DNA of 32,000 nucleotides from Pseudomonas aeruginosa (lineage in GTDB: Bacteria > Pseudomonadota > Gammaproteobacteria > Pseudomonadales > Pseudomonadaceae). The stretch's first letter is position 1. Each line of letters opens with the position of its first letter. Below, one piece after another: positions 11,584 through 31,036 of the stretch. Position numbers and translations under genes: made by a program. The notes under the pieces were generated by a model, which had not been told where the DNA came from, made no database searches, and was given only the letters and a program-made list of their open reading frames with translations. The stretch lies in contig NZ_LN831024.1 of NCBI RefSeq assembly GCF_001457615.1, forward strand, positions 3,030,001-3,062,000, read 5' to 3'.

Positions 11584-12546
11584 TCATTCCTGGCGGGGCA
11601 TTACTCCGCGACGTGAAAACAGCAGCGGCGTGCCGTCGGCGTTGAACAGCGCCGCCGTCAGCGAAAGGCCGTCAGCCGACGGTGCTTCCTGGAAACTGTT
11701 TCCACCATCCCTGCTCCGTACCTTCAGTCCGTCAAGCCCGACCGCCAATACCCGAGCGCCAGCCACTGCTATGGATGTGACCGAGCCCTTGCCTTGCGTT
11801 GGCACTCTGAGAAAAGCCTTGCCATCGGCAGAGCCCTGCAACAGGGTGCCACGCTGACCACCCAGCAGCAGACGCCCATCGGCCAGCACCGCGCCAGACC
11901 ACAGGGTGCCCTCATAGCCGGTATCCAGGTAACGCCAGTTCTTCCCCTGGTCGTCGGAGCGCAGCACCTGCCCATGCTCGGCCGTGGCGTACAGGGTGCC
12001 GTGGTTGTCGGCAAACAGCCCCATCAGGTTGAGGTCGGCCCGCTTGGCTCCTGGAGGCGCTTGCAACGGCTGCTCCGTCCATGTCTTGCCGCCATCCTCG
12101 GTGGTCAGCACCAACGACCAGAGGCCTACCGCAACGCCCTGCCGGGCATCGAAAAAGTGCACGGCGAACAGCGGCCGGTCTTCTTCGCTCGACAGGCGCT
12201 GGACCTGCCAGGATTCCCCGCCGTCGGCGGTGGACAGGATCGCCCCCCAGTGACCCACCGCCCAGCCGTGCCTGGCATCCACGAAGGACACACCCGTCAA
12301 TGGCGTGGATAGTGGGACCGAGCGTGCCTGGCGCCACTGCCTGCCCTGGTCATCGGACAACAACACGACACCGTGGTCGCCCACGGCAACCACTCGCTCT
12401 CCGGCCCAGCCGGCGGCCAGCATGGTGGCCTGCGTGGCATTGCCCGCCTGCACGGCCGGCACGGCCTGCAACGGCGCGGCCTGGAGAGACATCAGCGGCA
12501 ATCCTGCTGCGAGCAAGGCCGCGGTGAATGAAACCCTGAACTTCAT
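11584..12546 (-). CDS. Secreted BNR/Ycf48-like beta-propeller protein (WD40/YVTN/BNR-like repeat protein)
   Basis: 320 aa with a signal peptide (MKFRVSFTAALLAAGLPLMSLQAAP). Repeated S.D.G..W units (TADGGESWQ, TEDGGKTWT, SDDQGKNWR, SRDGGNSFQ). Last gene of the DUF1329 operon. Confidence 0.8.
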   Translation of the reverse strand: MKFRVSFTAALLAAGLPLMSLQAAPLQAVPAVQAGNATQATMLAAGWAGERVVAVGDHGVVLLSDDQGRQWRQARSVPLSTPLTGVSFVDARHGWAVGHWGAILSTADGGESWQVQRLSSEEDRPLFAVHFFDARQGVAVGLWSLVLTTEDGGKTWTEQPLQAPPGAKRADLNLMGLFADNHGTLYATAEHGQVLRSDDQGKNWRYLDTGYEGTLWSGAVLADGRLLLGGQRGTLLQGSADGKAFLRVPTQGKGSVTSIAVAGARVLAVGLDGLKVRSRDGGNSFQEAPSADGLSLTAALFNADGTPLLFSRRGVMPRQE

Positions 12547-12556
12547 GCTTCTCTCC

Positions 12557-14971
12557 TCAGTGCACCAGCGCGCCGATCATGCGCACGGGACGTTTGCGCG
12601 GGAACGCCCGCTCCAGCCATACGGCGAAGGCCGGCAGCACGGTCATGGCCATGACCATGTTGACGACGAACATGAAGGCCAGCAGCTTGCCCATGTCGGC
12701 CTGGAACTTGAGCTCCGAGAAGGCCCAGGTGGCCACGCCAACGGCCAGGGTGATGGCGGTGAAAATGGTGGCGACGCCCACCTCGAGCAGCGCGTACTCC
12801 ACCGCCTTGGTGATCGTCTGGCCATGGGCCAGGTGCAGTTGCAGGCGGTTGTAGATGTAGAAGGCGTAATCGACGCCAATGCCCACTGCCAGCACCATCA
12901 CCGGCAAGGTGGCGATGGTCAGGCCGATCTGCAGCTCCTTCATGAACCAGTAGCCAATGAAGGTGCCGATGGTCAGCGGCAGGCAACACACCAGGACTGC
13001 CCGCAAGTCGCGATAGACCACGAACACCAGCAAGGCGATGGCGGCATAGACGTAAAGCAGCATGGGGGTTTCGCTCTTCTCCACCTCTTCGTTGATCGCT
13101 GCCAGGACGCCGGCGTTGCCGGAGGCGAGGCGGATCGAAATGCCTGACATCGGATACTCGCTGCGGAACGCCTTGGCGGCGTCCACCACTCGGTTGATGG
13201 TCGTGGCCTTGTGATCGGCCAGGTACAGGTGCACGGCCGACATGCTGCAATCGGTGCGCATCAGCCCGGGGGTTCGCGCAACCTCGGTGGCCAGCGCGGC
13301 GTAGTTCATCGGGTCGATGGGCACCGCCGCCATCTTCGGGTTGCCTTCGTTGTAGCCCTCGTTGAACTGACGCATGGTGGTGGAAAAGGACGCGACCGAG
13401 AGGACGCCGGGCACCCCCTGCATGGCCCACACGAAACGATCCTGGTACTGGCCCAGGGCGACATCCTCGCAGGCCACCTCGGAAGGAGCCTTGTCGACTT
13501 CGAACACCACGCTGAGCCAGTCCAGGCCAATGTCGTAGTTGCTGGCGATGGAGACCGCGTCGCGATTGAAGCGCGAGTCCTCGCGCAACTCCGGCGCACC
13601 CGCCTGCAGCGTGCCGACGACGCGGTCATGGCTTTGCCAGATCGCCGCCAGGAACACCGCCAAGGCCGCGCCGAGCACCCACTGCGCCTTGCGTGGCTCG
13701 GCGAGCCGGGCCAGGCCCCGCAGCCAACGGCTGCGACGCTGCCGGGAAACCTCCTGGGCGGCTGCGTACTTGTCGTCGACGCGCAGCAACGACGCCATCA
13801 ACGGCAACATCACCAGGTTGGTGACGATCTTGTAGGCCACGCCAAGCGAAGCCGTGATCGCCAGTTCCCGCACCATCGGGATCGGGATCAACAGCAGCGT
13901 CACGAAGGAAACCAGCGCGGTCACCAGCGCCAGCGTCCCGGGAACCAGCAACCCGGTGAAGCTCGAGCGTGCCGCCTCTTCGGCGCTCTTGCCGATGGCG
14001 ATCTCGCGCACGATGAAGTTGATTTGCTGCACGCCATGGGAAACCCCGATGGCGAACACCAGGAAGGGCACCAGCACTGCCAGCGGATCGAGCCCATAGC
14101 CCAACAGGCGCAGGCTGCCGAACTGCCAGACCAGCGAGGCCAGCGAACAGACCAATGCCAGCAAGGTGAAACGCAGCGAGTGGCAATACCAGTACACCGC
14201 CCCCGCCGTCAGCAGCAACGCCAGCAAACAGAACTCCAGCACGGCTGAAGCTCCGTCGGCGATGTCGCCGATCTGCTTGGCGAAACCGATGATCTGGATT
14301 TCGAAATCGCCGTCTTCGAAGCGCTGGCGGATCTCTTTCTCCAGCCGATGGTTGAAGGTTACGTAGTCCAGATGGGCGCCCTGGCTATCGTACTCGTTGA
14401 GTTCCACCGTGATCATCGCGCTGCTCTGGTCCCGGGAAACCAGCGTACCGATGAAGCCGCCCTGGGCAGTGGAATTGGCGATCTTCGCGATGATCCGGTC
14501 ATCCAGGTGCTCGGGAGAAACCGTTCCGGGTACCAGCGGATCAGCACGAAAACCTTCCTCGGTGATTTCGTTGACGAAGGCGTTGGGCGTCCACAGGGAG
14601 CGCACGCTGCTGCGCGATACTCCCGGGAGGAAGGTCACCGCCTGGGTGACGTCATACAGCCGCTTCAGGCCCGGGGCGCTCCAGATATCGCCCTCTCGGG
14701 CCTTGACCACGATGGTCAGTCGGTTCGCCCCCAGCAGGTCATTGCGGTAGGCCTCGAATGTCTCGATGTATTCGTGGCCTACCGGCAATTGCTTTTCGAA
14801 GCCGGCATCCATGCGCAGCTGTACGGCGAACCAGCCCATGATCAGCGTGAATACCGCCAGGCTCGCCAGCACCAGCCGGCGATGCCTGAACAACACACCT
14901 TCGACATATGACAACAGGCCACGTGTCGGGGCCTCAGGTAGCTTTACAGAACCGTTCACGGCAAGCCTCAC
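12557..14971 (-). CDS. RND-superfamily (MMPL/HpnN-like) inner-membrane transporter
   Basis: 804 aa with two 6-TM bundles separated by large periplasmic loops. The GTG start overlaps the DUF1302 stop (GTGA at 14968-14971). Confidence 0.85.
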   Translation of the reverse strand: MRLAVNGSVKLPEAPTRGLLSYVEGVLFRHRRLVLASLAVFTLIMGWFAVQLRMDAGFEKQLPVGHEYIETFEAYRNDLLGANRLTIVVKAREGDIWSAPGLKRLYDVTQAVTFLPGVSRSSVRSLWTPNAFVNEITEEGFRADPLVPGTVSPEHLDDRIIAKIANSTAQGGFIGTLVSRDQSSAMITVELNEYDSQGAHLDYVTFNHRLEKEIRQRFEDGDFEIQIIGFAKQIGDIADGASAVLEFCLLALLLTAGAVYWYCHSLRFTLLALVCSLASLVWQFGSLRLLGYGLDPLAVLVPFLVFAIGVSHGVQQINFIVREIAIGKSAEEAARSSFTGLLVPGTLALVTALVSFVTLLLIPIPMVRELAITASLGVAYKIVTNLVMLPLMASLLRVDDKYAAAQEVSRQRRSRWLRGLARLAEPRKAQWVLGAALAVFLAAIWQSHDRVVGTLQAGAPELREDSRFNRDAVSIASNYDIGLDWLSVVFEVDKAPSEVACEDVALGQYQDRFVWAMQGVPGVLSVASFSTTMRQFNEGYNEGNPKMAAVPIDPMNYAALATEVARTPGLMRTDCSMSAVHLYLADHKATTINRVVDAAKAFRSEYPMSGISIRLASGNAGVLAAINEEVEKSETPMLLYVYAAIALLVFVVYRDLRAVLVCCLPLTIGTFIGYWFMKELQIGLTIATLPVMVLAVGIGVDYAFYIYNRLQLHLAHGQTITKAVEYALLEVGVATIFTAITLAVGVATWAFSELKFQADMGKLLAFMFVVNMVMAMTVLPAFAVWLERAFPRKRPVRMIGALVH

Positions 14972-16614
14972 AAGGTGCGGGAGATCGCGATGCCGACATA
15001 ATCGCGGTCACGATAAAGCTGGTCGTAGGGCGTCTCACCGCCCATGAACTTCGCGTAGTTGAGGGAAATCTGCCAACTGGCCGGGTTCCGCACGAAGTTC
15101 AGGTACAGGTTCATGCTGCTCGCGTCCTCGGTGAAGGTTGCGCTGAGGTTCGGTGTCCGTCCTCCCAGCGACCGTGCATAGAAGACGCCCGGCGTGACCT
15201 GCCAGCCCGGCAACAAGGTGCCGTCATAGGTCAGGCTGAAGTCCAGGTTGATCCCTGAAGAGGTCTTGTCGCCACGGGACTTCGGCGCTCTGGCAGGATC
15301 CAGCTGCCAGGCATTGAGCCCCGCGGCGAGCGGTTCGCCATTGACCTCGTCATGCAGCCCCGGGTACTTGATGACCACCAGTTCGGTCAGCAAGCTGCCC
15401 GTGCTGGCCCCGCTGAAATCCAGAAGCGTCGGGGAATTGGACGGCGTGAAGCTGTACAGGCCTGTCAGGTGCCACTGGAATTTCTTCTCGTCCTTCCAGC
15501 ATTTGCCGCCGTTGCCGGTACACAGGTCGATGACCGGGTTGAGCATGACCGAGTCCTTCGGCCGGTACGACAGCTCCGTACCGACGGCCCAGTCACCGAT
15601 CGGCATGTTGGCACTGATGCCGTACATCATCCGGTCTTCCTGGTACTCCCAGGTCGGTGCCGCCGCGAAGGTGTTCGGGTCGAGAATGGCGACACGCAAC
15701 GATGGCAACTTGTCGTGATAACGCATCACGTAGAAGCCATAGGCGACGTCGCTGTCCTCCGGCTGCCAGCGCAGCGAAAGGCCCCACTGGCCGCTGTCGC
15801 GGGCGTCCTTTTCGGAGAATCCGTAGTCCCCCCTGCCCTCACCCAGCGCGTTGGTGGTGGACCAGTAGCTGCCCACCGGCGGCAATTCGCTCTTGTTCCA
15901 GCGGAATTGATAGTAGGCCTCGACGTTGACACCCGAGCCCAGGCCCGACGCGACACTGAGCATCGGCGCCGGCAGCACGGCCTCCTTGAGCTGCACGCCG
16001 GGGCGCGCCAAGGCCTGGTAATCATAGGCGTTGGTATTGTTGATGCCACCGGCCACGAACAGGCTTTCGCCCCAGTTGATCACCTGGTTGCCCAGGCGTG
16101 CGCGGACCCGCTGCCCGCCCACGTCGAAGCCTTTGCTCACCCACAGGTCCAGCAGGCGGGCCTTGAACGCGAGGTCGTCGCGGGCGTCGTCGCTCAGCCC
16201 GTTGCTGCCGACGCTCTCCGGGGTGTTGAACGACAGCGTGCCGGTGGTATCGGTGGCAGCGAAGTCGCGGATCCAGGTGCCGCGCGCCATGAAGGTGATG
16301 TCCTCGGGCATCTTCAGCAACAGCTCATGGGTGCCCTTGAGGTAGTTGGTGAACATGTCGCCGCGGTCGTAGTTCAGGTCGCCCTGGTCGGCCACGCCGG
16401 AGCTCTGCGCCAGGCAGCCGGAGGGCGCGTTGTGCCCGGTCGGTCCCTGGTTGATCAGGTTGCAGCCCCGTGACTCGGTACGCAGACCCATGCCTGCGGT
16501 GATCGTGGAGTCGAAGGAGCCATTGAGGGTTTCGGTTTCGAACGTGAATCCCATTGCCAGTGGGGTTGTGCACGCGATGACAAGGCCTGAGGCTTTCGTA
16601 ATTATTTTTTTCAT
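14968..16614 (-). CDS. DUF1302-family outer-membrane beta-barrel protein
   Basis: 548 aa with a signal peptide (MKKIITKASGLVIACTTPLAMG). N-terminal LNGSFDSTITAGMGLRT, an aromatic-rich alternating pattern and a C-terminal ...IAISRTL fit my memory of DUF1302 proteins. Confidence 0.75.
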   Translation of the reverse strand: MKKIITKASGLVIACTTPLAMGFTFETETLNGSFDSTITAGMGLRTESRGCNLINQGPTGHNAPSGCLAQSSGVADQGDLNYDRGDMFTNYLKGTHELLLKMPEDITFMARGTWIRDFAATDTTGTLSFNTPESVGSNGLSDDARDDLAFKARLLDLWVSKGFDVGGQRVRARLGNQVINWGESLFVAGGINNTNAYDYQALARPGVQLKEAVLPAPMLSVASGLGSGVNVEAYYQFRWNKSELPPVGSYWSTTNALGEGRGDYGFSEKDARDSGQWGLSLRWQPEDSDVAYGFYVMRYHDKLPSLRVAILDPNTFAAAPTWEYQEDRMMYGISANMPIGDWAVGTELSYRPKDSVMLNPVIDLCTGNGGKCWKDEKKFQWHLTGLYSFTPSNSPTLLDFSGASTGSLLTELVVIKYPGLHDEVNGEPLAAGLNAWQLDPARAPKSRGDKTSSGINLDFSLTYDGTLLPGWQVTPGVFYARSLGGRTPNLSATFTEDASSMNLYLNFVRNPASWQISLNYAKFMGGETPYDQLYRDRDYVGIAISRTL

Positions 16615-16637
16615 GCTGGCTCTCGATCTGGCGTCGG

Positions 16638-18062
16638 TTAGCGCTCGCTGATGGCTCGCAGATTGTCGGAGGTGAAGAAGTCACGCTTCAGGCGGGGGGA
16701 GCCGTTGTCTTCGGTGAGCCAGCGAATATCGTTCTTGCCCGCCCCGATCGAGGTCATGTCGAAGAGGTAGCGGCCATCCGCCAGGTTGTACTGGACCTGG
16801 GCCTGGACGTCGCAGGCGCCTGTCTCGTACACGGGAATCGAGAACCCTTCGCGCACTTTCCAGATCTGCCCTTGCTTGTCGTAGTCCACCGCCAGCAACG
16901 GGTTCCAGCTGTCCTCGTCGATGTAGAACATGCGCTTCGGCGCCTGATGGCGCATGCCTTGACGGACATTGGCCTCGACGACCCAGACCCGATGCAGCTC
17001 ATAGCGACGCGACTGCGGCGCGATCGAGTCGTTGCCGGCAAACGTCTCCACCTTGGCGCCAGTGTCGTAGGCACCGAAATCGTTGTAAGGCACCAGCAAC
17101 TCCTGCTTGCCGATCAGCTTCCAGTCGAAACGGTCCATGGTGCCGAAGAAGACGTTCGCCTCGTCGACGGTGTACTGGTTATCCAGGCCGATCTGTGGCG
17201 CATCGTAGGAGTACGACGGCATTCGCCGCACGCGGCGCTGGCCGGGGAAGTAGTAGAAGGTCGTGGCCTGTTCGCCGGCCACGGCAGTCTGTACCGCGGA
17301 CTGGCCGGCCAGAGCAGCCGGCTCGAGGTAGTTGAAGAAGGTCGCATTCTCCAGGCGGCCAACTGACGAGAAGAGCGCACTCCCCTTTTTCCCCCAGGGC
17401 GTGAAGAAGAAGGTATCTGTCGACTGACGTAACCATTCCCCCCCTTTGCGTGGAGAAATTCCGGAAATGGTCCGGGGAATTTCGACGCCAACGCCGCGGT
17501 AGCGCATCTTCATGTTCCACATCACCTCGGCACCGGTACTCGGCATGGGGAACGGGATGCCCGGAACGTGAGCCTCGTCCAGAGCGAGGCCGGCAGCATC
17601 GAGCTTGGCGAAACCAACGTTCTGCCGGGTGTTCTCGACCACGAAGTCCGGAGCGCTACAGGTCCGACGGGTCGGATACACATCCATGCGATAGCCGGGA
17701 ATCCTCTTGAACAGCTCGACCTGTCCGGGGGACAGCTTGCTCGAGTGTTGCGCGAGATTGTTCGCGTCGATGCTGTAGAGCGGCTTGTCGCCCTTGAACT
17801 TCCAGTGCTCTCCTCGCACCTGGCCGTAGCTCCATCCCTCGTCCTGCTGTCCAGGCTGCGTCCAGGCAGGAATATCCCCGCTTGCACTCGCTGCGATCTC
17901 CCCGCCCAAGGGGGTCAGTTTCGACCCCAGCGCCTCGGGGCCCTGGGGCGCAGCCTGGACCGAACAGAGCACGGTCGATACCGCGAGGGTCATGAACAAC
18001 TGCTGCTGGAAAACACGACGGGTGGGCGCTTCACCTTCCAGCCGTTCAGTTACATCTTTCAT
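16638..18062 (-). CDS. DUF1329-family periplasmic/outer-membrane lipoprotein-sorting-like (LolA-like) protein
   Basis: ORF 16638..18143, trimmed to MKDV (the Met at MTLAVSTVLCSVQA is also possible). LTPLGGEIAASASGDIPAWTQPG matches the conserved N-terminal signature I associate with DUF1329. Confidence 0.75.
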   Translation of the reverse strand: MKDVTERLEGEAPTRRVFQQQLFMTLAVSTVLCSVQAAPQGPEALGSKLTPLGGEIAASASGDIPAWTQPGQQDEGWSYGQVRGEHWKFKGDKPLYSIDANNLAQHSSKLSPGQVELFKRIPGYRMDVYPTRRTCSAPDFVVENTRQNVGFAKLDAAGLALDEAHVPGIPFPMPSTGAEVMWNMKMRYRGVGVEIPRTISGISPRKGGEWLRQSTDTFFFTPWGKKGSALFSSVGRLENATFFNYLEPAALAGQSAVQTAVAGEQATTFYYFPGQRRVRRMPSYSYDAPQIGLDNQYTVDEANVFFGTMDRFDWKLIGKQELLVPYNDFGAYDTGAKVETFAGNDSIAPQSRRYELHRVWVVEANVRQGMRHQAPKRMFYIDEDSWNPLLAVDYDKQGQIWKVREGFSIPVYETGACDVQAQVQYNLADGRYLFDMTSIGAGKNDIRWLTEDNGSPRLKRDFFTSDNLRAISER

Positions 18063-18136: not shown

Positions 18137-18179
18137 TGATCATTTGACCTGATCAATTGACCATGTCGGACGATCATGA
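18137..18179 (-). promoter_or_regulatory. Operator-like array, site 1 (upstream of the DUF1329 operon)
   Basis: TGATCATTTGACC TGATCAATTGACC ATGTCGGACGATCATGA. The first part is a tandem 13-bp repeat. The reverse complement aligns ungapped to 21813-21855 (32/43 identical) and to 23048-23073 (22/26). Confidence 0.6.
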
Positions 18180-18417
18180 GGCAAACCATATGCCAGTTCT
18201 CTTTCATGTTTTTTTAATTGTTATAAATCAGGCGGTTATGGAAAAAGTTCTGTTCCAGGCCCAGTGCCCTGTGCACCACCTTGGGAAGTAAAGAAACATG
18301 TGTTACCTGGAGATGCTTGGTAACAGGGCACAAGAGAGCTTGAGGGGAACTTTCGTAGATATCGGCTCGGGCATTTTTAATTGTCGTTTCGCCTCGGGTC
18401 AGAGGGAGCGATCGGAT

Positions 18418-18429
18418 ATGACCGGTCAT
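18418..18429. promoter_or_regulatory. Perfect 12-bp palindrome ATGACCGGTCAT in the long AT-rich region upstream of the DUF1329 operon
   Basis: Read directly from the sequence. It contains two GGTCA half-sites, the same half-site as the operator-like arrays. Function unknown. Confidence 0.25.
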
Positions 18430-18499
18430 GAATCGAGCAACTTTATCCGACAATGCACGCTCCGCGGCGGAGCGGGACTATAGCGGATGTAATGCCTGC

Positions 18500-18523
18500 A
18501 AAAAAAACCGCCCCGAAGGGCGG
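18500..18523 (-). terminator. Rho-independent terminator of the PhyH2 / FAD oxidoreductase / 7-TM operon
   Basis: The minus strand reads CCGCCCTTCGGGGCGG followed by TTTTTTTT. It lies 93 nt downstream of the 7-TM gene stop. A second small hairpin (GGCAGG/CCTGCC) sits at 18531-18549. Confidence 0.8.
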
Positions 18524-18615
18524 TAAAAGGCAGGGCCAGGGCCTGCCATGGAGTTACAGCAGAACAGTTCTGCCAGGTTATCGGTAAGAAAGAAAAACTT
18601 GTCGCGCCGTATTGT

Positions 18616-19278
18616 TTATCGCGGACGAGGAAACGCTTGGCCGTATACCTTGTTCGAACGCTCCAGCGCACCATAGGCATAGTACAACTGCACCATGGAA
18701 TAGGACCAAGCCAGGAAGGCCATGGTCATGAAGACCATCTTCGTGTCGTCTCCCGGAATCGGGAAGAAGTCATATCTGAGTGCTACTACCAGGCCCGCCA
18801 GCCCGCCAGCGATGGTGGCCAGAGTATGGAGGGCTTCGCCTGCACGGGCCAGTTGCAAGGTGAAGTAGCAAAGATACAAGGTATAGGCTGACCACATGAA
18901 TACATAGAAATAAGGGAGGAATCCCTCGATGATTCCAGACAGGAAATAGACGCCGGTAGCGGCAAAGCCAGCTACAAAAATGAGGATGTCCTTGGCGGGC
19001 GACGGTTTGTAATCGTGGGTAACTGCCATTAGCCCGAGCGTAGCGATAACTGGCACTCCCACCCCTCGCGAAAAGGCGTCGAGAAAGATCGCGATGTTGT
19101 AGTTGGCTTGCCAGCCGGTGGCTATGAATGTAGTGAAGTTCGATGCCGAGATACCTACGATCAAGAACTCCAGGCCAAGCAAATAGTTTTTCCGCCTGAT
19201 GAATGCAGCGCCATAAAACAATCCGGAAATCACCAGGAGAATACATGAGAGCAGAGCGAACAAGTCTCTCGGTTCCAC
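18616..19278 (-). CDS. Hypothetical integral membrane protein (about 7 TM), no family recognised
   Basis: 220 aa, GTG start with an AAGGGG SD. Very hydrophobic and aromatic-rich. Clearly AT-richer codon usage than its neighbours, judged by eye. It has its own strong terminator. Confidence 0.65.
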   Translation of the reverse strand: MEPRDLFALLSCILLVISGLFYGAAFIRRKNYLLGLEFLIVGISASNFTTFIATGWQANYNIAIFLDAFSRGVGVPVIATLGLMAVTHDYKPSPAKDILIFVAGFAATGVYFLSGIIEGFLPYFYVFMWSAYTLYLCYFTLQLARAGEALHTLATIAGGLAGLVVALRYDFFPIPGDDTKMVFMTMAFLAWSYSMVQLYYAYGALERSNKVYGQAFPRPR

Positions 19279-19373
19279 GTTAACTGCCCCTTCAGATAGA
19301 GTTGTATCGATGCCTTGTGTCTAATCGGTGCAAGGGAGTACGGGCATAACCCCATTAACTCCCCGCATCGTTA

Positions 19374-20741
19374 TCAGCCGTTCAAGGCTTTGTCTTTGCG
19401 CACTTTCTTGTCGGTCCATGCATCCAGTAGCCTGGCGGCCGCAAAGGCCGTCTTTATGGCGCACCATTGAAGTGGCTCGGGTAGCATGGATGGCGTCTTG
19501 TGTTCCAGCGCCGCTAGCAGCGGAGGCTCTCCACCGCCGATTCGCTCGGCGAAAAGCGCGCCCATGAGCGATTGAGTGGCAAGGCCATGCCCTGAACATC
19601 CCGCCGTATAGAAGATGTTCTGCCTGGCCCCTGTCACCCCGACCACGGGGAGGAAGTCGTAGGCCCCGCTGATATACCCGCTCCAGCAATGCCGAATGGC
19701 AAGGCCCTGCAAGGAAGGAAAACGCTCGCGCAACACTCTCGACAACGCGGCGTAGGCGGCGTGGTCCGGAACATTGGGTGTCTTCGAGCCGTAGGCATAA
19801 CCCAATTGCTTCACGGTCAGCAGCAGGGTGTCATGGGCCGTCAGGCGATGACTTTCCATGGTGTAGTGCGGCGTAATGAGGCCTTCACGCTCTTGCCAAC
19901 CCAGGGACGCCAGTTGCTCCGCCGATAGCGGCTGGGTTTCGATTGCCGAAACCCGGATCGGTGCAACCTTGTTGCGGAGCACTCCCAGCTGAGGCGTGTA
20001 GGCGTTGGTCGCCAGAACCATTACAGGGGCGGTGGCGATACCCTGGGCCGTATTGCAGGTAATCACCTGCCCTTCACAGTAGGAAAGCACCGGCGTGCGT
20101 TCGTACAATTTCACGCCAGCCTTGATTGCCGCACGACGCAGGCCGTTGACGTACTTTCCCGGATTCAAGGTGCCGCCACGCTGCTCGCTGCCAAACAGGA
20201 ATGCGGGCGGTATGCCTCGCGCGCGCATCTCGGCGCTATCCACGAAGCGCGTGACAGAGCCCAGCGCGTGGCCAAGCTCCATGTTCGCTCGCAGTCGCTT
20301 TTCCTGGCTGGGATGGACGGCGGCCCGGATGATTCCCGAGGGCGTGTAATCGCAATCGATGTCCAGCGCAGCCAAACGCTCTTCCACATAGGTGACGGCC
20401 TCGTCATAGAAACCGACGAACTTACGTGCCTGCTCAAGCCCCACTCGCTTGACGAAAACCTCGCATTCTATGCCCATGCTGCCGAGCAGATAGCCGGCAT
20501 TGCGCCCGCTGGCCCCGAAGCCTGCGAACTGCTGTTCCAGAACGATGACGTTCGCTCCACGCGCCCTTAGTTCCAGCGCCGTTGACAGGCCGGCGAACCC
20601 GGCGCCGACCACGACTACGTCTGCGTGCTCGTGGCCTTTCAGCGCCGGCTGCAGGTCGTCTGGCTGCTCCACCCATCCGCCAAGGCTGCGGAATCTCATG
20701 GGTTCGGCATTGTTGCGTGCCGCTCCGTTGAAGGCATTCAT
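19374..20741 (-). CDS. FAD-dependent (DAO-family) amine oxidoreductase, PuuB (gamma-glutamylputrescine oxidase)-like
   Basis: ORF 19374..21011, trimmed to MNAFNG (GGGAG SD 8 nt upstream). VVVVGAGFAGLSTALEL dinucleotide fold, GFGASGRNAGYL and a C-terminal GCSGHGL, as in PuuB-type enzymes. Confidence 0.8.
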   Translation of the reverse strand: MNAFNGAARNNAEPMRFRSLGGWVEQPDDLQPALKGHEHADVVVVGAGFAGLSTALELRARGANVIVLEQQFAGFGASGRNAGYLLGSMGIECEVFVKRVGLEQARKFVGFYDEAVTYVEERLAALDIDCDYTPSGIIRAAVHPSQEKRLRANMELGHALGSVTRFVDSAEMRARGIPPAFLFGSEQRGGTLNPGKYVNGLRRAAIKAGVKLYERTPVLSYCEGQVITCNTAQGIATAPVMVLATNAYTPQLGVLRNKVAPIRVSAIETQPLSAEQLASLGWQEREGLITPHYTMESHRLTAHDTLLLTVKQLGYAYGSKTPNVPDHAAYAALSRVLRERFPSLQGLAIRHCWSGYISGAYDFLPVVGVTGARQNIFYTAGCSGHGLATQSLMGALFAERIGGGEPPLLAALEHKTPSMLPEPLQWCAIKTAFAAARLLDAWTDKKVRKDKALNG

Positions 20742-20802
20742 TCTCATCACTCCCGGGTTGCCGGACGTTGTTCCTCTCATGGGCCGATCCATGGCAGTGC
20801 CG

Positions 20803-21690
20803 CTAGAACCCCTTCCCCGCCTCGGAAAAGGAGGGCATGCCCAACAGCTCTTGCGGGTCACGCATCTGACCATCGATCTCCACCCAACCCAGTAGCGTGG
20901 AACTGGCACTCCATCCCAGCAGACGCTGCATTTGCGAGGGGAGCTGCCGAACGCGCTCGACGGGTATGGAAAGGAAGTGGTTTTCTTCCAGGCGCAGGAA
21001 GGCCAGGTCATAGGCCATGGTCAGGCCTGTGCGAGGAGCGTCGGATCTGTTGGCGCCACCGCCGTGATATACCGATCCCAGCCAGAGAAGCGCAGTGCCT
21101 GCCTTCATTTCTGCGCCGATGGTTTCTTCCTGGGTGGGCATCCGTTCGTCATCCCATTGATGACTGCCAGGAATGACCCGCGTCGCGCCGTTCTCTTCGG
21201 TGAAGTCGGTAATCGCCAGCATGAGCTGCAAGCGAGCCTCGCGACCATACTGCGGATGCCGCCAGAGCGAAGTGGCATCGTCGCGATGCAGGGGTTGAAG
21301 ACCTTGTCCAGGCCCGATCTGTATCGCCTGGGTCATGCTCAGTTGGATATCGGGCGTGATCTCGACCCGATCGTTCCCTACCCAGACATGGGTGGGAGTC
21401 TGCAATACCTGCTTTGCCGTCTCGAGGAACAGGGGGGTCAGTGCCACTTCCACGGCGGAGTCGCTTTTCGCCAGGATCCGCGCGGTACGTCGAGTCTGGG
21501 TGCCGGCGAAGTAAGGGTCCATGCCGCAGGGGGTAACGCCCAGATAGCTGTCCAGGTCCTCGGTAAGAGACTTCAAGGTTTCTTCCGAGACGAAGTTGCA
21601 AATAGCGACAGCGCCATCACGCCTGATGATTTCCACTACCTGCTCGATCGGGGTGTCGCAGCTGACTGTCGTCAATCTTCGCGTACTCAT
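20803..21690 (-). CDS. Phytanoyl-CoA dioxygenase (PhyH) family Fe(II)/2-oxoglutarate dioxygenase, paralog 2
   Basis: 295 aa. LHRDDA (HxD), VYHGGGAN (distal His) and FTEENGATRVIPGSH. This block is nearly identical to the one in paralog 1. Confidence 0.85.
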   Translation of the reverse strand: MSTRRLTTVSCDTPIEQVVEIIRRDGAVAICNFVSEETLKSLTEDLDSYLGVTPCGMDPYFAGTQTRRTARILAKSDSAVEVALTPLFLETAKQVLQTPTHVWVGNDRVEITPDIQLSMTQAIQIGPGQGLQPLHRDDATSLWRHPQYGREARLQLMLAITDFTEENGATRVIPGSHQWDDERMPTQEETIGAEMKAGTALLWLGSVYHGGGANRSDAPRTGLTMAYDLAFLRLEENHFLSIPVERVRQLPSQMQRLLGWSASSTLLGWVEIDGQMRDPQELLGMPSFSEAGKGF

Positions 21691-21812
21691 CTGATGCCTA
21701 CCTGTGTGGTGTTGTCATTGTTCTGCAGGGCTTCCGCAATCAACCTCAGCCCATGAGCGTTCACTCTCATGCGGTCAGACCGCCCTCTCCTTGCGCCTGG
21801 CACGGAAAGGAG

Positions 21813-21855
21813 GTTTGATCATACGACATGATCATGTGATCAAGTCAAACGATTA
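21813..21855 (+). promoter_or_regulatory. Operator-like array, site 2 (PhyH2 / tetR divergent region)
   Basis: GTTTGATCATACGACATGATCATGTGATCAAGTCAAACGATTA, with three TGATCA cores at 21816, 21829 and 21837. Ungapped match to the reverse complement of site 1. Confidence 0.6.
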
Positions 21856-22138
21856 ATAATTCTGCGTGGCATCTCGGCGCTCAGGAAAGGCCTGCCGAAT
21901 CAAGATCCGGCTCTACGCGGGTTCGCGCTGGCGATAGCGGATTGCCCAGGCTCGATCCTGTTTCGCTTCGGCTACACATCGCCGGCGGTCGGAGCGAAAC
22001 ATCTGGAGAGACAAAGGGTCGCTGCCTCGGTCCTCAAGCGTGTCGACTCATGGATTGGGGGACGGCCATGCGTTAGCATTCGTCCCGGTCGACAGCGGAC
22101 CAGTCGCCTGGCGGCAACACCGAAGAAGGAGAAGCTGA

Positions 22139-22720
22139 ATGGCTCGAGTGGGCGCCGAAGTGCGCAGGCAAGACTTTATTGAGGCCGCCGTGAAGGTGAT
22201 CGCGGAATATGGTGTGGCGAATGCCACTACGCGTCGCATCGCGGCCGCGGCGAATTCTCCATTGGCCTCCCTGCACTATGTCTTCCACACCAAGGACGAA
22301 TTGTTCGACGCGGTCTATGAGTCCCTGATAGACAAGCCACAGCAGTCCTTGCTGCATGTTACGGCGGGAGCCACGGCGGCAGACTCGGTAGCAGAGATAT
22401 TGCGCCAGTTGGTCGGGTGGTTCACCACGCATCCGGAACTGGCGACTACGCAGTTCGAGCTGTTTTTCTGGAATCTGCGTAACAACCCCGCTATGGCGAG
22501 CAAGATCTACACCGATTCCGTCGAAGCGACGAAGCAGGCCATTGAACAGGTCGCTGGCTCGGTGCTGGACCAGGAAGCGCTGGCCACTGTCAGTCGCTTG
22601 CTCATCAACCTGTTCGATGGCTTGCTTCTCGCCTGGTCCGCCCATGGTGACCAGGAGCGGCTGAATGCCGAGACCGAAGCCGCCTGCCAGGCTGTGAAGC
22701 TGTTGGTGGCCAGCTTCTGA
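22139..22720 (+). CDS. TetR/AcrR-family transcriptional regulator
   Basis: 193 aa. N-terminal HTH RQDFIEAAVKVIAEYGVANATTRRIAAAANSPLASLHYVFHTKDELF. GAAGGAGAAG SD upstream. Confidence 0.9.
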   Translation: MARVGAEVRRQDFIEAAVKVIAEYGVANATTRRIAAAANSPLASLHYVFHTKDELFDAVYESLIDKPQQSLLHVTAGATAADSVAEILRQLVGWFTTHPELATTQFELFFWNLRNNPAMASKIYTDSVEATKQAIEQVAGSVLDQEALATVSRLLINLFDGLLLAWSAHGDQERLNAETEAACQAVKLLVASF

Positions 22721-22745
22721 TCTTTTCGAAGGCGCATCTCTAGAG

Positions 22746-22777
22746 AGGGGCATGGTGACACGGTTCGCCGTGCCCCT
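22746..22777 (+). terminator. Weak hairpin downstream of tetR
   Basis: AGGGGCA / TGCCCCT 7-bp stem with an 18-nt loop, followed by GCTCTTCGGG. There is no real U-tract. Confidence 0.2.
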
Positions 22778-23047
22778 GCTCTTCGGGCCTCTTGCCAGTT
22801 CAGGTGCGGCGCCTCTTCTAGTTCTCCTCTCCCCGCCTCCGCTTCCAGCGGAATCCTGGGCGGCTATCTCGCCGGTCCTTCCCCCTCATAGTCCTGCAAG
22901 TTGACTGTGCGCTTCTCGTCCATGCAACAGGCCTTCCGCCATGGCCTGGCGGGAACTGGCTGCGGCACCTAGGTGCAAATAAACCCAAACCGATGGAAAC
23001 CTGGTGCATTTCGCACCTTGTACCAGCAACTCGCTCGCGCCTATTCT

Positions 23048-23080
23048 GGTCAAACGATCAAGTCAAAAGATCAAGTCTCT
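23048..23080 (+). promoter_or_regulatory. Operator-like array, site 3 (directly upstream of the BVMO gene)
   Basis: GGTCAAA CGATCA AGTCAAA AGATCA AGTCTCT, with 13-bp periodicity. It ends 23 nt before the BVMO ATG. A possible sigma70-like TTGTAC-N17-TATTCT lies just upstream at 23019-23047 (speculative). Confidence 0.6.
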
Positions 23081-23103
23081 ATAACACAACAATAGGAGGC
23101 GAC

Positions 23104-24630
23104 ATGTCCTCTCACACTGCTCTTCCAATTGAGCCGCTCGATGTTCTGATCATAGGAGCCGGTGTGTCTGGCATCGGCGCTGCGGCTTACCTTCGACGTC
23201 ACCAGCCGCACAAGGTGTTTGCGATTCTCGAGTCCCGGGAGCGAATGGGCGGCACCTGGGACCTGTTCCGCTATCCCGGCATACGCTCCGACTCGGACCT
23301 GTACACCTTCGGCTTCGACTTCAAGCCTTGGACCAAGGCGAAATCTCTGGCGGATGCCGCCGACATTCTCGAATACCTGCGAGAAGCCGTCGCTGAATAC
23401 CAGTTGGACCCCTTCATCCAGTACCGGCAGAAAGTGGTCTCGGCGAATTGGCAGAGCGACAAAGGGCTGTGGGCAGTATGCGTCGAGGACGGCCACACGG
23501 CAGAAACCCGCACCATCGAATGCCGCTGGCTGTTCAGCGCAGGCGGCTACTACCGTTATGACCAAGGCTTCAGCCCACGCTTCGAGGGCGCGGAGCAGTT
23601 CAAGGGGCAAATCATCCACCCGCAACACTGGCCCGAGCGCTTGGACTATCGAGGCAAGCATGTGGTGGTCATCGGCAGCGGCGCAACGGCGGTGACCCTG
23701 ATTCCCGCCATGGCCGACGAGGTCGCCAGCATCACCATGTTGCAGCGGACGCCCTCCTATATCGTCAACCAGCCCGCCAACGATTCCGTTGCCGCTTTTC
23801 TTCGCAAGATTCTGCCGGCGCAAACCGCCTACTCACTGACGCGCTACAAGAATGCCAAGATCACCCTGGTCTTCTGGCGATTCTGCCAGCGCTTCCCCGG
23901 GCTCGCCCGCAAGCTGCTCATATGGCTGACCCGTAGAGAATTACCGAAAGGCTATCCGGTCGACGTTCATTTCAACCCGCCCTACAAGCCCTGGGACCAA
24001 CGCTTGTGCTCGGTTCCCGAAGGCGATCTTTTCAAGGCCATCAGTGCAGGTAAAGCCTCGGTCGTTACCGACCATATCGAGCGCTTTACCGAGTCCGGTG
24101 TCTTGCTCAAGTCCGGCACGGAACTGAAGGCCGATATCATCATCACGGCCACCGGTCTGAACGTGCAGTTGTTCGGCGGTATCGCCCTGCACAAGGATGG
24201 CGAGCCGGTAGTGTTGAGCCAGACGCTGGCGTACAAGGGCACGATGCTTTCCGGCGTACCCAATTTTGCCTTTGCGGTGGGCTATACCAACTCATCCTGG
24301 ACGCTGAAAGTATGCCTGCTGTGCGACCACTTCTGTCGCTTGCTGGGCTTCATGGACAGCCAGGGCCATAACGTCTGCGAGCCGAAGGCGCCGGATGGTG
24401 TCGAAACCCGTCCCCTGCTGGATTTCGGGGCCGGATATGTCCAGCGGGCATTGGATGGCATGCCGCGCCAGGGGCCTCGCGAGCCCTGGGTGATGTCGAT
24501 GGATTACTTCCGTGACATCAAGCTTTTGCGCCGAGGGAAGGTCGCCGACGAATGCCTCCGGTTCAGCACGGTGCCTGACGCCTACCTGCACAGAAGCGTG
24601 GCGCTTCAGACTCAGGGCGGCGGGCGATGA
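23104..24630 (+). CDS. Type I Baeyer-Villiger (flavin-containing) monooxygenase, EthA-like
   Basis: ORF 22993..24630, trimmed to MSSHTAL (AGGAGG SD). GAGVSG FAD fold, BVMO fingerprint [12 protein letters not shown] (FxGxxxHxxxWP) and a second Rossmann GSGATA. Confidence 0.9.
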
Positions 24631-25502
24631 CTGCGGATCGGTTCTGCGAGCTACCGGGCAAGCGTAGCCTCTGCTATCGCAGCCACGGTCCGGAAACCGC
24701 GCCTGCGGTCATCCTCATCGTCGGCCTGGGGCTGCAATTGATCTACTGGCCTGAAGCGCTCATCGCCGGCCTGGTCGAGCGGGGCCTGCGCGTGATCACG
24801 CTGGACAACCGTGACTCGGGCAGGTCTTTCTTCACCGAGGTTACCCCGCCCTCGACCCTGCAACAGTTCTTCCGCAAACCGACTGCGGGGTATGACCTGG
24901 GCGACATGGCCGACGATGTGATCGGCCTCATGGATGGCCTGCGCCTGGGGGCGGCGCACGTCGTAGGGATGTCGATGGGCGGCATGATCGCCCAGACACT
25001 TGCCGCTCGTTATCCGCAGCGAGTCATGAGCCTGGCGTCCATCTTCTCGACGACAGGATCGCTGCGAGTAGGCCAGCCAGCGTTCAAGACCATCTTGCAG
25101 CTTCTCCGGCGTCCTCCCCGGAACCAGCGGGAGAGCGTTCGCGACTATGTGGAGATCATGCGTTCCGTCGGTACGACGCTGGAATGGGACGAGCAGGCCC
25201 ATCGCGACTACGCCATGCAAGCCTGGGAGCGAGGCGGCGGGGAAGCGAGCAACCTCGGGATGGCGAGGCAGATCGGCGCCATCATCAACTCGGGCGACCG
25301 AACGCAGGAACTCCAGCGAATTCGCTGCAACACACTGGTCATCCATGCTGAGAAAGACCTCATGGTCGCCACCAGCGGAGGCTTCGCCACGGCGGCGGCC
25401 ATTCCCAGGGCACGCTTGGTGCTGTTGCCGGGAATGGGGCATGACTTCCCCGCCTGCCTGACAGGAACGCTGCTTTCCCTGCTCGCAGGCCAAATGCATT
25501 AG
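24627..25502 (+). CDS. Alpha/beta-fold hydrolase (putative esterase partner of the BVMO)
   Basis: 291 aa. Nucleophile elbow GMSMGG and C-terminal GMGHDFP. The start overlaps the BVMO stop (ATGA at 24627-24630). Confidence 0.85.
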
Positions 25503-28234: not shown

Positions 28235-28312
28235 CGACCACCCTTCTATCGAACGCTCTGACAACAACCACAAGGCCGGCTTCGAGCCTGCCCTTCAATG
28301 GCGAGAATCGAT

Positions 28313-29737
28313 ATGCAAACCAAACTTCTGATCAATGGTGCCCTGGTGGCCGGCGAAGGCGAGAGCCACGCGGTGTACAACCCGTCCCAGGGCAACGTCC
28401 TGGTGCGAATTACCGAGGCCAGCGGTGCCCAGGTCCATGCCGCGGTGCAGAGCGCGGATGCGGCCTTCGACGCCTGGTCGCAAACGCCGCCCAAGGATCG
28501 CGCGGCCCTGCTGCTCAAGCTCGCCGAGCGCATCGATGCCCAGGCGCACGTGTTCGCTCGCCTGGAGGCGGACAACTGCGGCAAGCCTTTCAACGCCGTG
28601 CTGCTGGACGAACTGCCCGCCGTGTCGGACGTGTTCCGTTTCTTCGCCGGCGCCGTGCGCTGCCTTCAGGGCTCGGCGGCGGGAGAGTACGTCGCGGGGC
28701 ATACCTCGATGATCCGCCGCGACGCGGTGGGCGTGGTCGCCTCCATCGCGCCGTGGAACTATCCGTTGTTGATGGCAGCGTGGAAACTCGGCCCGGCATT
28801 GGCCGGCGGCAACACCGTGGTGCTGAAACCGTCGGAGCACACGCCGCTGAGTACCTTGAAACTGGGCGAGCTGCTTGCCGAGATCTTCCCCGCCGGCGTG
28901 GTCAACATCGTCCACGGTCGAGGTGCCTCGGTGGGTGAGCCGCTGACCAGCCATGCCCAGGTGCGCATGGTGTCGCTGACCGGCTCCGTGCGCACCGGCA
29001 GCCGGATCATCGAAGGTACGGCCGAGAGCGTGAAACGCATGCACATGGAGTTGGGGGGCAAGGCTCCTGTACTGATCTTCGACGATGCCGACATCGACGC
29101 CGCCGTCGAAGGCATCCGCACCTTCGGCTTCTACAACGCCGGCCAGGACTGTACCGCCGCGTGCCGCCTCTATGTGCAGAAAGGGGTCTACCAGGAGTTC
29201 GTTCGCAAGCTCGGCGAGGCCGTATCCAGCATCCGGTGCGGGCTGCCGGACGATCCGGCGACCGAGATGGGACCGCTGATCACCAAGGAGCATCTGGAGC
29301 GTGTCGAGGGGTTCGTGAACCGTGCCAGGGAGTTGCCGCACATCGAAGTGGTCACCGGCGGCAAGCGCGCCGAGGGTGCCGGCTTCTTCTTCGAGCCGAC
29401 GGTCCTGGCCGGCGCTACGCAGGAGGATGAGGTGGTGCGCCGCGAGATCTTCGGCCCGGTGGTGACCGTCTCGTCGTTCGAGGATGAAGCCCAGGCGCTG
29501 GCTTGGGCGAACGACTCCGACTACGGCCTGGCGTCTTCGGTATGGACCGCCGATGTGGGGCGCGCTCATCGCCTGGCCGCCCGCCTGCAATACGGCTGCA
29601 CCTGGGTCAACACCCACTTCATGCTGGTCAGCGAAATGCCCCACGGCGGGGTCAAGCTGTCCGGCTACGGCAAGGACCTGTCGATGTACGGCCTGGAAGA
29701 CTACACCGTGGTGCGCCACGTGATGTTCAAGCACTGA
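28313..29737 (+). CDS. patD: Gamma-aminobutyraldehyde (omega-aminoaldehyde) dehydrogenase, PatD/Prr-like
   Basis: ORF 28298..29737, trimmed to [17 protein letters not shown] (E. coli PatD starts MQHKLLINGELVSGEGE as I recall). Near-collinear similarity through to the C-terminus ([14 protein letters not shown]). Catalytic ELGGKAP and GQDCTAACR. Confidence 0.85.
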
Positions 29738-29782: not shown

Positions 29783-31036
29783 ATGAACAACATCGAGACG
29801 TTCGAAAGGCTCGAATCCAACGTGCGGATGTACTGCCGCGACTTGCCCCTGGTGTTCGATACCGCCCAAGGCAGCAGGATCCGCGGCGAAGATGGCCGCG
29901 AATACCTGGACTTCTTCGCCGGCGCCGGCGCCCTGAACTATGGCCACAACGACCCGCGCATGCGCGATGCGCTGATCGCGTATCTGTCGGCCAACGGCGT
30001 GACCCACGCCCTCGACCTGCACACCACCACCAAGCGCCAGTTCCTGGAAGCGATCGAGCGCGACCTGTTCAAGCCACGCGGCTGGGACTACAAGGTCCAG
30101 TTCACCGGCCCGACCGGTGCCGACGCCGTCGAGGCGGCGTTGAAGCTGGCGCGCAAGGCGACCGGGCGTACCAAGGTCGTATCGTTCTACGGGGCTTACC
30201 ACGGCATGACCGCCGGCGCCCTGGCCGTCACCGGCAACCGCACTCGCCGTGGCCCTGGGCTTTCCACCGACGTGGTGTTCGTGCCCTACGAAGACAGCCC
30301 CTATGGCGAATTCGACAGCATTGGCTTCCTCGAGCGCCTGGCCAACGACCAGGGCAGCGGCTCGGAGCTGCCGGCGGCGGTGATCGTCGAGTCGGTGCAG
30401 ATCCAGGCCGGCGTCTACCCGGCTTCCAACCAATGGCTGCAACGCTTGCGCAAGTGGACCACCGACCACGGCGTGCTGCTTATCTGCGACGAGATCCAGG
30501 CCGGTTGCGGCCGCACCGGCGACTTCTTCGGCTTCGAGCGCTCCGGGGTGGTGCCGGACCTGATCACCTGCGCCAAATCGATCGGCGGCTTCGGCCTGCC
30601 GATGGCGATCGTGTTGCTTCGTGCCGGGCTGGATGTATGGCAACCGGGCGATCACATCGGCACCTTCCGCGGCAACCAGTTGGCGTTCCTGACCGCCCGC
30701 ATCGCGCTCAGCTATTGGCACGATGAGCAGTTCCTGAAATTGCTGGCCGGCAACTGCGCGGCCATGGAGCGCGCAGTTGCCGGCTTTGCGGAAATTCCAG
30801 GCGTCGCGTCCGCGCGTTGTCGCGGCATGATCGCCGGCATCGATTTCGGCCGCGGCAACGTCGAGGTCGCCAAGGACGCCCAGCAGCGCGTGCTGCAAGC
30901 GGGCGTGCTGGTCGACCGCTGCGGCCCGAATGGCGAAATCATCAAGCTGATGCCACCGCTGAACACTCCGACCGACCAACTCGAAGACGGCCTCAGGGCC
31001 TTCGGCGAATCGGTCGCGGCAGCGCTGGGCGAATAG
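29783..31036 (+). CDS. Class-III PLP aminotransferase of the diaminobutyrate--2-oxoglutarate transaminase (EctB/Dat/PvdH) type
   Basis: 417 aa. N-terminal FERLESNVRMYCRDLPLVFDTAQG...YLDFFAGAGALNYGHNDP is the signature N-terminus of DABA transaminases. DEIQAGCGRTG motif and PLP-Lys region TCAKSIGG. AAGAGG SD. Confidence 0.85.
   Translation: MNNIETFERLESNVRMYCRDLPLVFDTAQGSRIRGEDGREYLDFFAGAGALNYGHNDPRMRDALIAYLSANGVTHALDLHTTTKRQFLEAIERDLFKPRGWDYKVQFTGPTGADAVEAALKLARKATGRTKVVSFYGAYHGMTAGALAVTGNRTRRGPGLSTDVVFVPYEDSPYGEFDSIGFLERLANDQGSGSELPAAVIVESVQIQAGVYPASNQWLQRLRKWTTDHGVLLICDEIQAGCGRTGDFFGFERSGVVPDLITCAKSIGGFGLPMAIVLLRAGLDVWQPGDHIGTFRGNQLAFLTARIALSYWHDEQFLKLLAGNCAAMERAVAGFAEIPGVASARCRGMIAGIDFGRGNVEVAKDAQQRVLQAGVLVDRCGPNGEIIKLMPPLNTPTDQLEDGLRAFGESVAAALGE

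Follow-up and report, generated by a model that had tools for sequence, protein, structure and literature searches.

The window analysed here is a stretch of 32,000 nucleotides from Pseudomonas aeruginosa (NCBI RefSeq assembly GCF_001457615.1, contig NZ_LN831024.1, positions 3,030,001 to 3,062,000), numbered below from its first base. It carries three arrays of a 13-bp repeat unit, which lie upstream of an envelope-protein operon that begins with a DUF1329 gene, between the genes PhyH2 and tetR, and upstream of a gene for a Baeyer-Villiger monooxygenase (BVMO). We conclude, with a probability of about 0.8, that these arrays are operators of the TetR-family protein encoded at 22139-22720, or of a paralogue that is nearly identical and shares its recognition helix. 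A preliminary description of this DNA had proposed that a single DNA-binding protein controls all three units, the TetR being its simplest candidate, and the comparative evidence presented here supports that proposal. The sites and the regulator are:

18137-18176, no strand: site 1, a 40-bp pseudo-palindrome with three cores (18139-18148, 18152-18161 and 18165-18174)
21816-21855, no strand: site 2, a 40-bp pseudo-palindrome with three units (from 21818, 21831 and 21844)
23049-23084, + strand: site 3, with two good units (23049-23058 and 23062-23071) and a degenerate third (23075-23084)
22139-22720, + strand: TetR-family regulator, the proposed binder

The three arrays and their repeat unit

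The arrays had been recognised by alignment. The reverse complement of 18137-18179 was said to match 21813-21855 at 32 of 43 positions, and its last 26 nt to match 23048-23073 at 22 of 26; both counts are exact. Elsewhere in the window the best match to the 26-mer reaches 16/26 at most. The 12-mer of the preliminary description, GTCAAWNGATCA, occurs six times with no more than one mismatch against 0.73 expected, a number reached by none of 100 shuffled windows, and five of the six matches fall inside the three sites. A longer consensus, TGATCANGTCAAANGATCA, is found six times with up to three mismatches (0.05 expected). The window was also scored with a weight matrix of 24 positions trained solely on sites from other genomes; nine matches of at least 8 bits were returned, every one of them inside the three sites, while Markov shuffles give 0.1. 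The same scan finds no array in the psl, PucR/PhyH1 and Fe-ADH intergenic regions, as had been claimed. The presence of the three arrays is thus confirmed and chance is excluded as its cause.

The distances to the genes needed one correction. The start codons lie at 18062 (DUF1329), 21690 (PhyH2) and 23104 (BVMO), each an ATG. The 74 nt between site 1 and DUF1329 and the 283 nt between site 2 and tetR stand, and the approximate 120 nt given for site 2 and PhyH2 is 125 nt; since the BVMO gene begins at 23104, site 3 ends 30 nt before it and not 23.

The period of 13 bp was also correctly seen, while its register is better given as RTCA-NN-TGAYCA-W, which is the same unit reframed. Its core, RTCANNTGAY, is a small palindrome of 10 bp, the flanks of which give TGAYCA hexamers. 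The unit was defined from 141 distinct instances in the window and related loci. Among these, the RTCA at positions -5 to -2, which had not been used in selecting the sites, carries 1.6-1.8 bits; because this information lies in unselected flanks, it reveals the 13-bp unit independently. Our first model, a 19-bp element (TGATCA-N-GTC-N4-GATCA), was dropped once these flanks had given the 13-bp unit with its palindromic core. Sites 1 and 2 share the form TGATCAnnnGACwTGATCA-NN-TGAYCAwGTCnnnnGATCA, that is, three palindromic cores in tandem. Being palindromes they have no direction, so that the earlier statement that the arrays point toward their genes is baseless for these two sites.

Each arm of the 40-bp sites holds four non-conserved spacer bases. 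In 15 of 49 distinct sites all four bases of one spacer complement those of the other, and at least nine different spacer sequences occur across species (ATCT, AAAC, ACGC, ATCC, ATTT, GCCT, AATT, AAAT, ACCT). The mean complementarity is 2.04 of 4 positions against 1.61 (standard deviation 0.11) when arms are permuted between loci, a value above all 2000 permutations, and the distribution is bimodal. The observation concerns site 1 of the window and the equivalent sites in L004, L007, L009, L011, L012, L015, L017-L019, L021, L025, L027, L032-L034, L054 and L055; in the window itself the arms of sites 1 and 2 agree at just 1/4 positions each. The complementarity may reflect correction of a quasi-palindrome at the DNA level, by template switching.

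These palindromes might be thought to act as structures, either a hairpin in the 5' leader of the transcript or a cruciform in the DNA. Two of the three sites are 40-bp palindromes and the agreement of their spacer arms across loci exceeds permutation, which would speak for such a role. Site 3, however, is a direct-repeat array and not a palindrome, and the start predicted below for the sigma-54 promoter falls inside the first arm of site 1. The predicted fold of the leader is no better than that of shuffled sequence (z = -0.61), Rfam has no match in the window, and the bimodal arm pattern suits occasional quasi-palindrome correction better than steady selection for a hairpin. We therefore regard a structural role as highly improbable.

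The TetR-family regulator and related loci

The product of 22139-22720 matches TetR_N of Pfam over residues 14-59 with 38.6 bits (cut-off 24); TetR_C_31 scores 24.4 bits, under its cut-off of 27.4. AlphaFold models the protein with nine helices, at a mean predicted local distance difference test score (pLDDT) of 73.6; the N-terminal 28 residues fall below 50. The best 50 Foldseek matches of this model in the PDB are all TetR-family proteins, with template modelling (TM) scores of 0.42-0.63 and none at E <= 0.001. A profile search of the PDB at that threshold returned no close solved relative, and EthR was not among the matches; NCBIfam offered no equivalog above its cut-off. The DNA-binding region is nearly invariant among the aligned homologues. 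Pfam scans of the remaining open reading frames (ORFs) of the window detected no DNA-binding regulator beyond the TetR and a PucR-family protein:

9140-10393, strand not given: PucR-family regulator, the second recognisable regulator of the window

For comparison, 55 loci (about 1.1 Mb) were fetched via homologues of the TetR, with one genome per species, from Pseudomonas, Burkholderia, Paraburkholderia and Streptomyces. Motif clusters that reach 18 bits are without exception intergenic in these sequences and adjoin DUF1329, PhyH (PhyH1 or PhyH2), BVMO or tetR, and the motif persists where synteny has changed, namely in the type B, Burkholderia and Streptomyces loci described below.

The loci that we call type A comprise 25 from Pseudomonas with the gene order of the window, two of which have no envelope module in the fetched flank. 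In the other 23 a site is found 72-79 nt upstream of the DUF1329 ATG. The PhyH2/tetR site is kept throughout, as is the BVMO site, 18-31 nt upstream, wherever a BVMO gene was found. In type B, represented by about 14 Pseudomonas loci, a paralogous tetR is divergent from a second DUF1329-DUF1302-RND-BNR operon and a three-unit array occupies the shared intergenic region. It lies mostly 73-75 nt from DUF1329; in four loci the distance is 129-166 nt, possibly because the protein match stops short of the start codon.

In Burkholderia and Paraburkholderia the number of tetR genes is one or two, and arrays precede tetR, a PhyH operon, PhyH1 or a BVMO gene. Three Streptomyces loci encode a TetR with 38% identity and have the motif before tetR; two of them have it before a BVMO-like gene as well. 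What would mark an operator, palindromic cores that adjoin the regulator gene and overlap promoters, appears at sites 1 and 3 of the window, where site 1 overlaps the start region of the sigma-54 promoter and site 3 abuts a -10 element, the promoters being the predicted ones described in the next section.

The two classes of paralogue raise the question of which protein is the main binder. Their DNA-binding regions are near-identical and their operator consensus is the same, and some genomes hold both or several copies (P0047 and P0098 bear the same organism label, Pseudomonas sp. QE6, and L020 and L035 lie on one contig). A type B TetR encoded elsewhere could thus be the principal occupant of the arrays, with the local TetR playing a secondary part or engaged in cross-talk. 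In type A, on the other hand, the three sites and the local tetR have been inherited as one block, and we consider this alternative unlikely.

Still less probable is that PucR or an unlinked global factor binds the arrays, the link with the TetR being one of synteny only. PucR is the only other recognisable regulator of the window, as noted above, yet its homologues are present in just 2/55 of the motif-bearing loci and so it is not the common factor. The window's own PucR/PhyH1 intergenic region is without the motif, and in Burkholderia and Streptomyces the motif accompanies the TetR despite an otherwise different gene order. These findings favour the TetR, local or paralogous, as the protein that would recognise the arrays.

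Promoters and transcription units

The spacer upstream of DUF1329 contains, in addition to site 1, the following elements:

18181-18195, - strand: sigma-54 (-24/-12) box TGGCATATGGTTTGC, promoter of the DUF1329 operon
18219-18239, - strand: IHF-like site TAACCGCCTGATTTATAACAA, a conserved block between enhancer and promoter
18302-18325, - strand: CbrB-type subsites, GTAACA at 18302-18307 and TGTTAC at 18320-18325
18507-18524, - strand: strong intrinsic terminator after the 7-TM gene, a CGCCC..GGGCG stem followed by a T-run

The box TGGCATATGGTTTGC is the sole exact match to TGGCAY-N5-TTGC in the window, and site 1 begins four bases downstream of it. The 23 type A loci with site 1 and almost all of type B have an exact box within a few bp of the array; five Burkholderia loci have theirs 13 bp away. 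If C18181 is taken as the -12 element, standard sigma-54 geometry would place the transcription start near 18169 and site 1 at about -7 to +33. Read in the direction of transcription, the spacer between the 7-TM (seven-transmembrane) gene and DUF1329 holds the terminator, a block with GGTAACAC, the IHF-like site, the -24/-12 box, the palindrome and a leader of about 75 nt. The type B loci have the same layout. The sequence GGTAACAC is invariant in 15 aligned loci and is also present in type B; in the window TGTTAC lies upstream of it. The terminator, CGCCCCTCGGGGCGG with its T-run, is likewise conserved across the aligned loci, and its position makes the PhyH2 and DUF1329 units separate transcripts.

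The envelope operon corresponds to PP2810-13 of Pseudomonas putida, the promoter of which depends on CbrB, IHF and sigma-N according to chromatin immunoprecipitation sequencing (ChIP-seq), electrophoretic mobility shift assays, footprinting and lacZ fusions (Barroso et al. 2018, PMC6296734). Counted from the ATG, its GG-N10-GC element is centred at -127, IHF covers -165 to -189 and the CbrB contacts extend from -210 to -270 (PMC6296734). The distances in the window equal those of PP2810, and GTAACA and TGTTAC match the R1 and F1 subsites. The expression reported for PP2810 was measured with plasmid fusions throughout, and neither Barroso et al. (PMC6296734) nor a later review mentions a TetR. 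By analogy with the P. putida orthologue, the sigma-54 promoter of the window would depend on CbrB and IHF. A locally encoded activator was ruled out, since a GAFTGA motif is absent from all six reading frames of the window and of every locus (within 10 kb), and CbrB is taken as the activator by orthology. The preliminary description regarded the three units as a single inducible system; this is incomplete, since the promoter beneath site 1 is of the sigma-54 type and its orthologue requires CbrB and IHF, and the envelope operon is, judging from that orthologue, likely not to be controlled by the TetR alone.

At site 3 and upstream of tetR two further elements were noted:

23018-23047, + strand: putative weak sigma-70-like promoter of BVMO (TTGTAC at 23018-23023, 18 nt, TATTCT at 23042-23047)
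22043-22084, + strand: promoter-like block TCGACTCATGGATTG...TGCGTTAGCATTCGTC, about 55-95 nt upstream of the tetR ATG

Upstream of BVMO, 25 loci have a TTG hexamer and, 17-18 bp away, a TATTCT or CATCAT hexamer. Site 3 would cover about -6 to +20 of this putative promoter. A strict sigma-70 consensus scan left all three sites without a promoter call, and the BVMO promoter is proposed from conservation. Neither site 2 nor site 3 has a sigma-54 box in the window. In three related loci a box directed toward PhyH2 flanks site 2 (L001 and L002, both 9690-9704; L008, 9678-9692), and in L018 a weaker one with two mismatches was spotted by eye in the alignment. The corresponding bases of the window, 21856-21875, read ATGCCACGCAGAATTAT, in which the GG and GC elements are both lost.

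The block upstream of tetR is conserved in 13/13 aligned sequences (the window and 12 type A loci) and looks like the gene's own promoter or leader. The weight matrix finds no operator motif in it, and for this reason autoregulation of tetR through site 2 is a mere possibility.

The earlier gene assignments are right, as judged by Pfam matches. The units adjoining the three sites are:

11584-18062, - strand: envelope operon (DUF1329, DUF1302, MMPL/RND and BNR/Ycf48-like; Pfam), corresponding to PP2810-13
16638-18062, - strand: DUF1329 (Pfam)
14968-16614, - strand: DUF1302 (Pfam)
12557-14971, - strand: MMPL/RND (Pfam)
11584-12546, - strand: BNR/Ycf48-like (Pfam)
18616-21690, - strand: PhyH2 unit (PhyH2, FAD/DAO oxidoreductase and 7-TM protein; Pfam and synteny)
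20803-21690, - strand: PhyH2 (Pfam)
within 19374-21011, - strand: FAD/DAO oxidoreductase (Pfam)
18616-19278, - strand: 7-TM protein, 220 aa
23104-24630, + strand: BVMO, forming with the esterase a unit that spans 23104-25502
24627-25502, + strand: alpha/beta-hydrolase esterase of the BVMO unit

The longest ORF of the DAO flavoprotein (19374-21011) overlaps PhyH2 (20803-21690) by about 200 nt. Since the homologue matches in many other loci end just short of PhyH2, translation probably begins well inside this ORF, downstream of 21011. The 7-TM protein (18616-19278) has no Pfam or NCBIfam match and is kept beside PhyH2 in Pseudomonas and Burkholderia loci. When the enzymes of the window were compared with NCBIfam for naming, no score rose above a cut-off.

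The window also encodes an aldehyde dehydrogenase (28298-29737) and a class III aminotransferase (29783-31036). In Burkholderia the loci L039-L049 (e.g. L041, 2423-13750) have two tandem tetR paralogues, together with an imine-reductase-like NAD-binding dehydrogenase, an MFS transporter, an aldehyde dehydrogenase and a class IV aminotransferase, and these extra genes stand beside PhyH, the 7-TM gene and the DUF1329 module. Taken with the DAO oxidase, aldehyde dehydrogenase and aminotransferase of the window, such gene content hints at the metabolism of an amine-bearing compound.

Proposed operator assignment and mechanism, and relation to known systems

Several points weigh against the assignment of the arrays to the TetR. 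The literature searched holds no account of this operator or of binding or expression by this TetR. Published PP2810 fusions of P. putida are strongly expressed in oxaloacetate medium with no added inducer; this may mean that the repressor was titrated out, as all of these fusions are plasmid-borne, that cells produce the ligand themselves, or that repression is weak. No convincing promoter adjoins site 2 in the window, where the sigma-54 box of related loci has decayed. Because TetR peptide patterns were used to fetch the loci, the joint presence of motif and TetR is in part a product of the sampling. Lastly, a scan by motif alone gave many unrelated look-alikes, chiefly low-GC 13-bp satellites.

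That scan, of metagenome contigs with a 25-mer, served as the control for the TetR-based sampling and yielded 85 loci. The gene context is canonical in 16/85, and all 16 matches that adjoin homologues of window genes belong to this group; where the geometry can be read (e.g. L134, L072) the canonical matches lie just upstream of BVMO or tetR. Most of the remaining loci are low-GC look-alikes, and a few stand in unrelated bacterial settings. No new members of the regulon were detected among the 85 loci.

The low-GC look-alikes (35-48% GC) hold 13-bp satellites such as (GTCACATGATCAT)n, or a dispersed repeat with ATCATGTGACCAAGTCAGGTGATCA. They include L059, L063, L065, L073, L075, L080, L082 and L085 as well as about 50 other metagenome loci, and are probably eukaryotic DNA in Joint Genome Institute (JGI) samples, unrelated to the TetR system. 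In a high-GC bacterial group (L066, L098, L116, L123, L138 and L139) three to four tandem AGTCACCTGATCA units lie between two ORFs, both of which resemble secreted proteins as judged by their N-termini; no homologue of the window TetR was detected nearby. The motif is therefore not unique in all sequence space, and within this lineage it is confined to these promoters.

The recurrence of the 25-mer in so many unrelated metagenome sequences, most of them low-GC satellites with the same 13-bp period, could suggest dispersed repeats without function, of the repetitive extragenic palindromic (REP) or mini-satellite type. In Pseudomonas-type DNA, by contrast, the arrays are restricted to set distances from certain start codons and from the sigma-54 box; conservation extends across genera, and the 32 kb of the window hold no extra copies. 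Many scattered copies unrelated to promoters, the mark of a REP-like element, were seen neither in the window nor in the 55 loci. We find this explanation scarcely credible and retain the TetR operators as the preferred reading.

A mechanism may be proposed on this basis. Two or three TetR dimers would bind each array side by side, probably cooperatively, the 13-bp spacing implying that successive dimers take partly overlapping positions. In the absence of ligand the TetR would occupy site 1 at the sigma-54 promoter, site 3 in the -10/start region of BVMO and site 2, 125 nt before the PhyH2-DAO-7TM unit. So bound, it would block initiation at BVMO and, at the sigma-54 promoter, either open-complex formation or escape, until a ligand frees it from the DNA. 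The envelope operon would then behave as an AND gate, transcribed when the ligand is present and CbrB, together with IHF and sigma-N, activates under carbon limitation. For the two-input logic and the details of multiple dimers we would put the odds at roughly even. The pairing of a sigma-54 promoter with an operator is kept in two paralogous Pseudomonas operons, and in Burkholderia with a 13-bp gap. The broader proposition has about the same standing, a half chance of being right: that a TetR array is built into the sigma-54 promoter, and that the envelope machine needs both CbrB activation and release by ligand and is coupled in this way to the BVMO/esterase and PhyH/amine-oxidase routes.

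The arrangement recalls several known systems. As in EthR-ethA of Mycobacterium tuberculosis, a TetR-family repressor gene lies beside a gene for a Baeyer-Villiger-type flavin monooxygenase. PMC3326297 describes cooperative binding of EthR to a 55-bp operator of repeated elements and cites Engohang-Ndong 2004 for octamerisation. Unlike EthR, the TetR of the window, which has no close sequence kinship with it, would recognise another motif at three promoters, one of them sigma-54 dependent. The overlapping palindromic half-sites could, as with QacR and IR1, seat more than one dimer per operator, to judge here from the 13-bp spacing. Two QacR dimers reportedly sit on one 28-bp IR1 operator, in work attributed to Schumacher in 2002; the target of QacR is one efflux gene with a sigma-70 promoter. 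The core of tetO, TATCA-N-TGATA, is an inverted TCA/TGA pair. The present system resembles TetR-tetO in this inverted core, in having the repressor gene beside its targets and in operators that overlap promoters; it differs in the 2-bp central spacing of its cores, in their tandem repetition every 13 bp and in its three target promoters.

PP2810-13 is the orthologous operon and has the same layout of GG-N10-GC, IHF site and GTAACA-TGTTAC, whereas the published study (PMC6296734) concerns activation only and applies "palindromic" to the activator binding sites. The array downstream of the -12 element extends that account.

Local TetR repressors that act on repeated operators are a known kind of system; neither this regulon nor its motif is described in the literature searched. 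Less ordinary are the conserved placement on a CbrB/sigma-54 promoter and the link of DUF1302/DUF1329 to a BVMO-esterase route. A natural TetR operator on a sigma-54 promoter, if confirmed, would be a compact two-input switch for circuit design. The PP2810 promoter serves as a sensitive and widely used reporter of CbrAB activity, and should our reading hold, this reporter carries an overlooked second input, probably a negative one. Three operons would be tied into one regulon, conserved from Pseudomonas to Burkholderia and partly in Streptomyces. The envelope proteins among their products (DUF1302, DUF1329, RND and BNR) have been flagged by fitness screens and their role is still unexplained; if the assignment is true, the ligand of the repressor should point to the class of substrate that this envelope machine handles.

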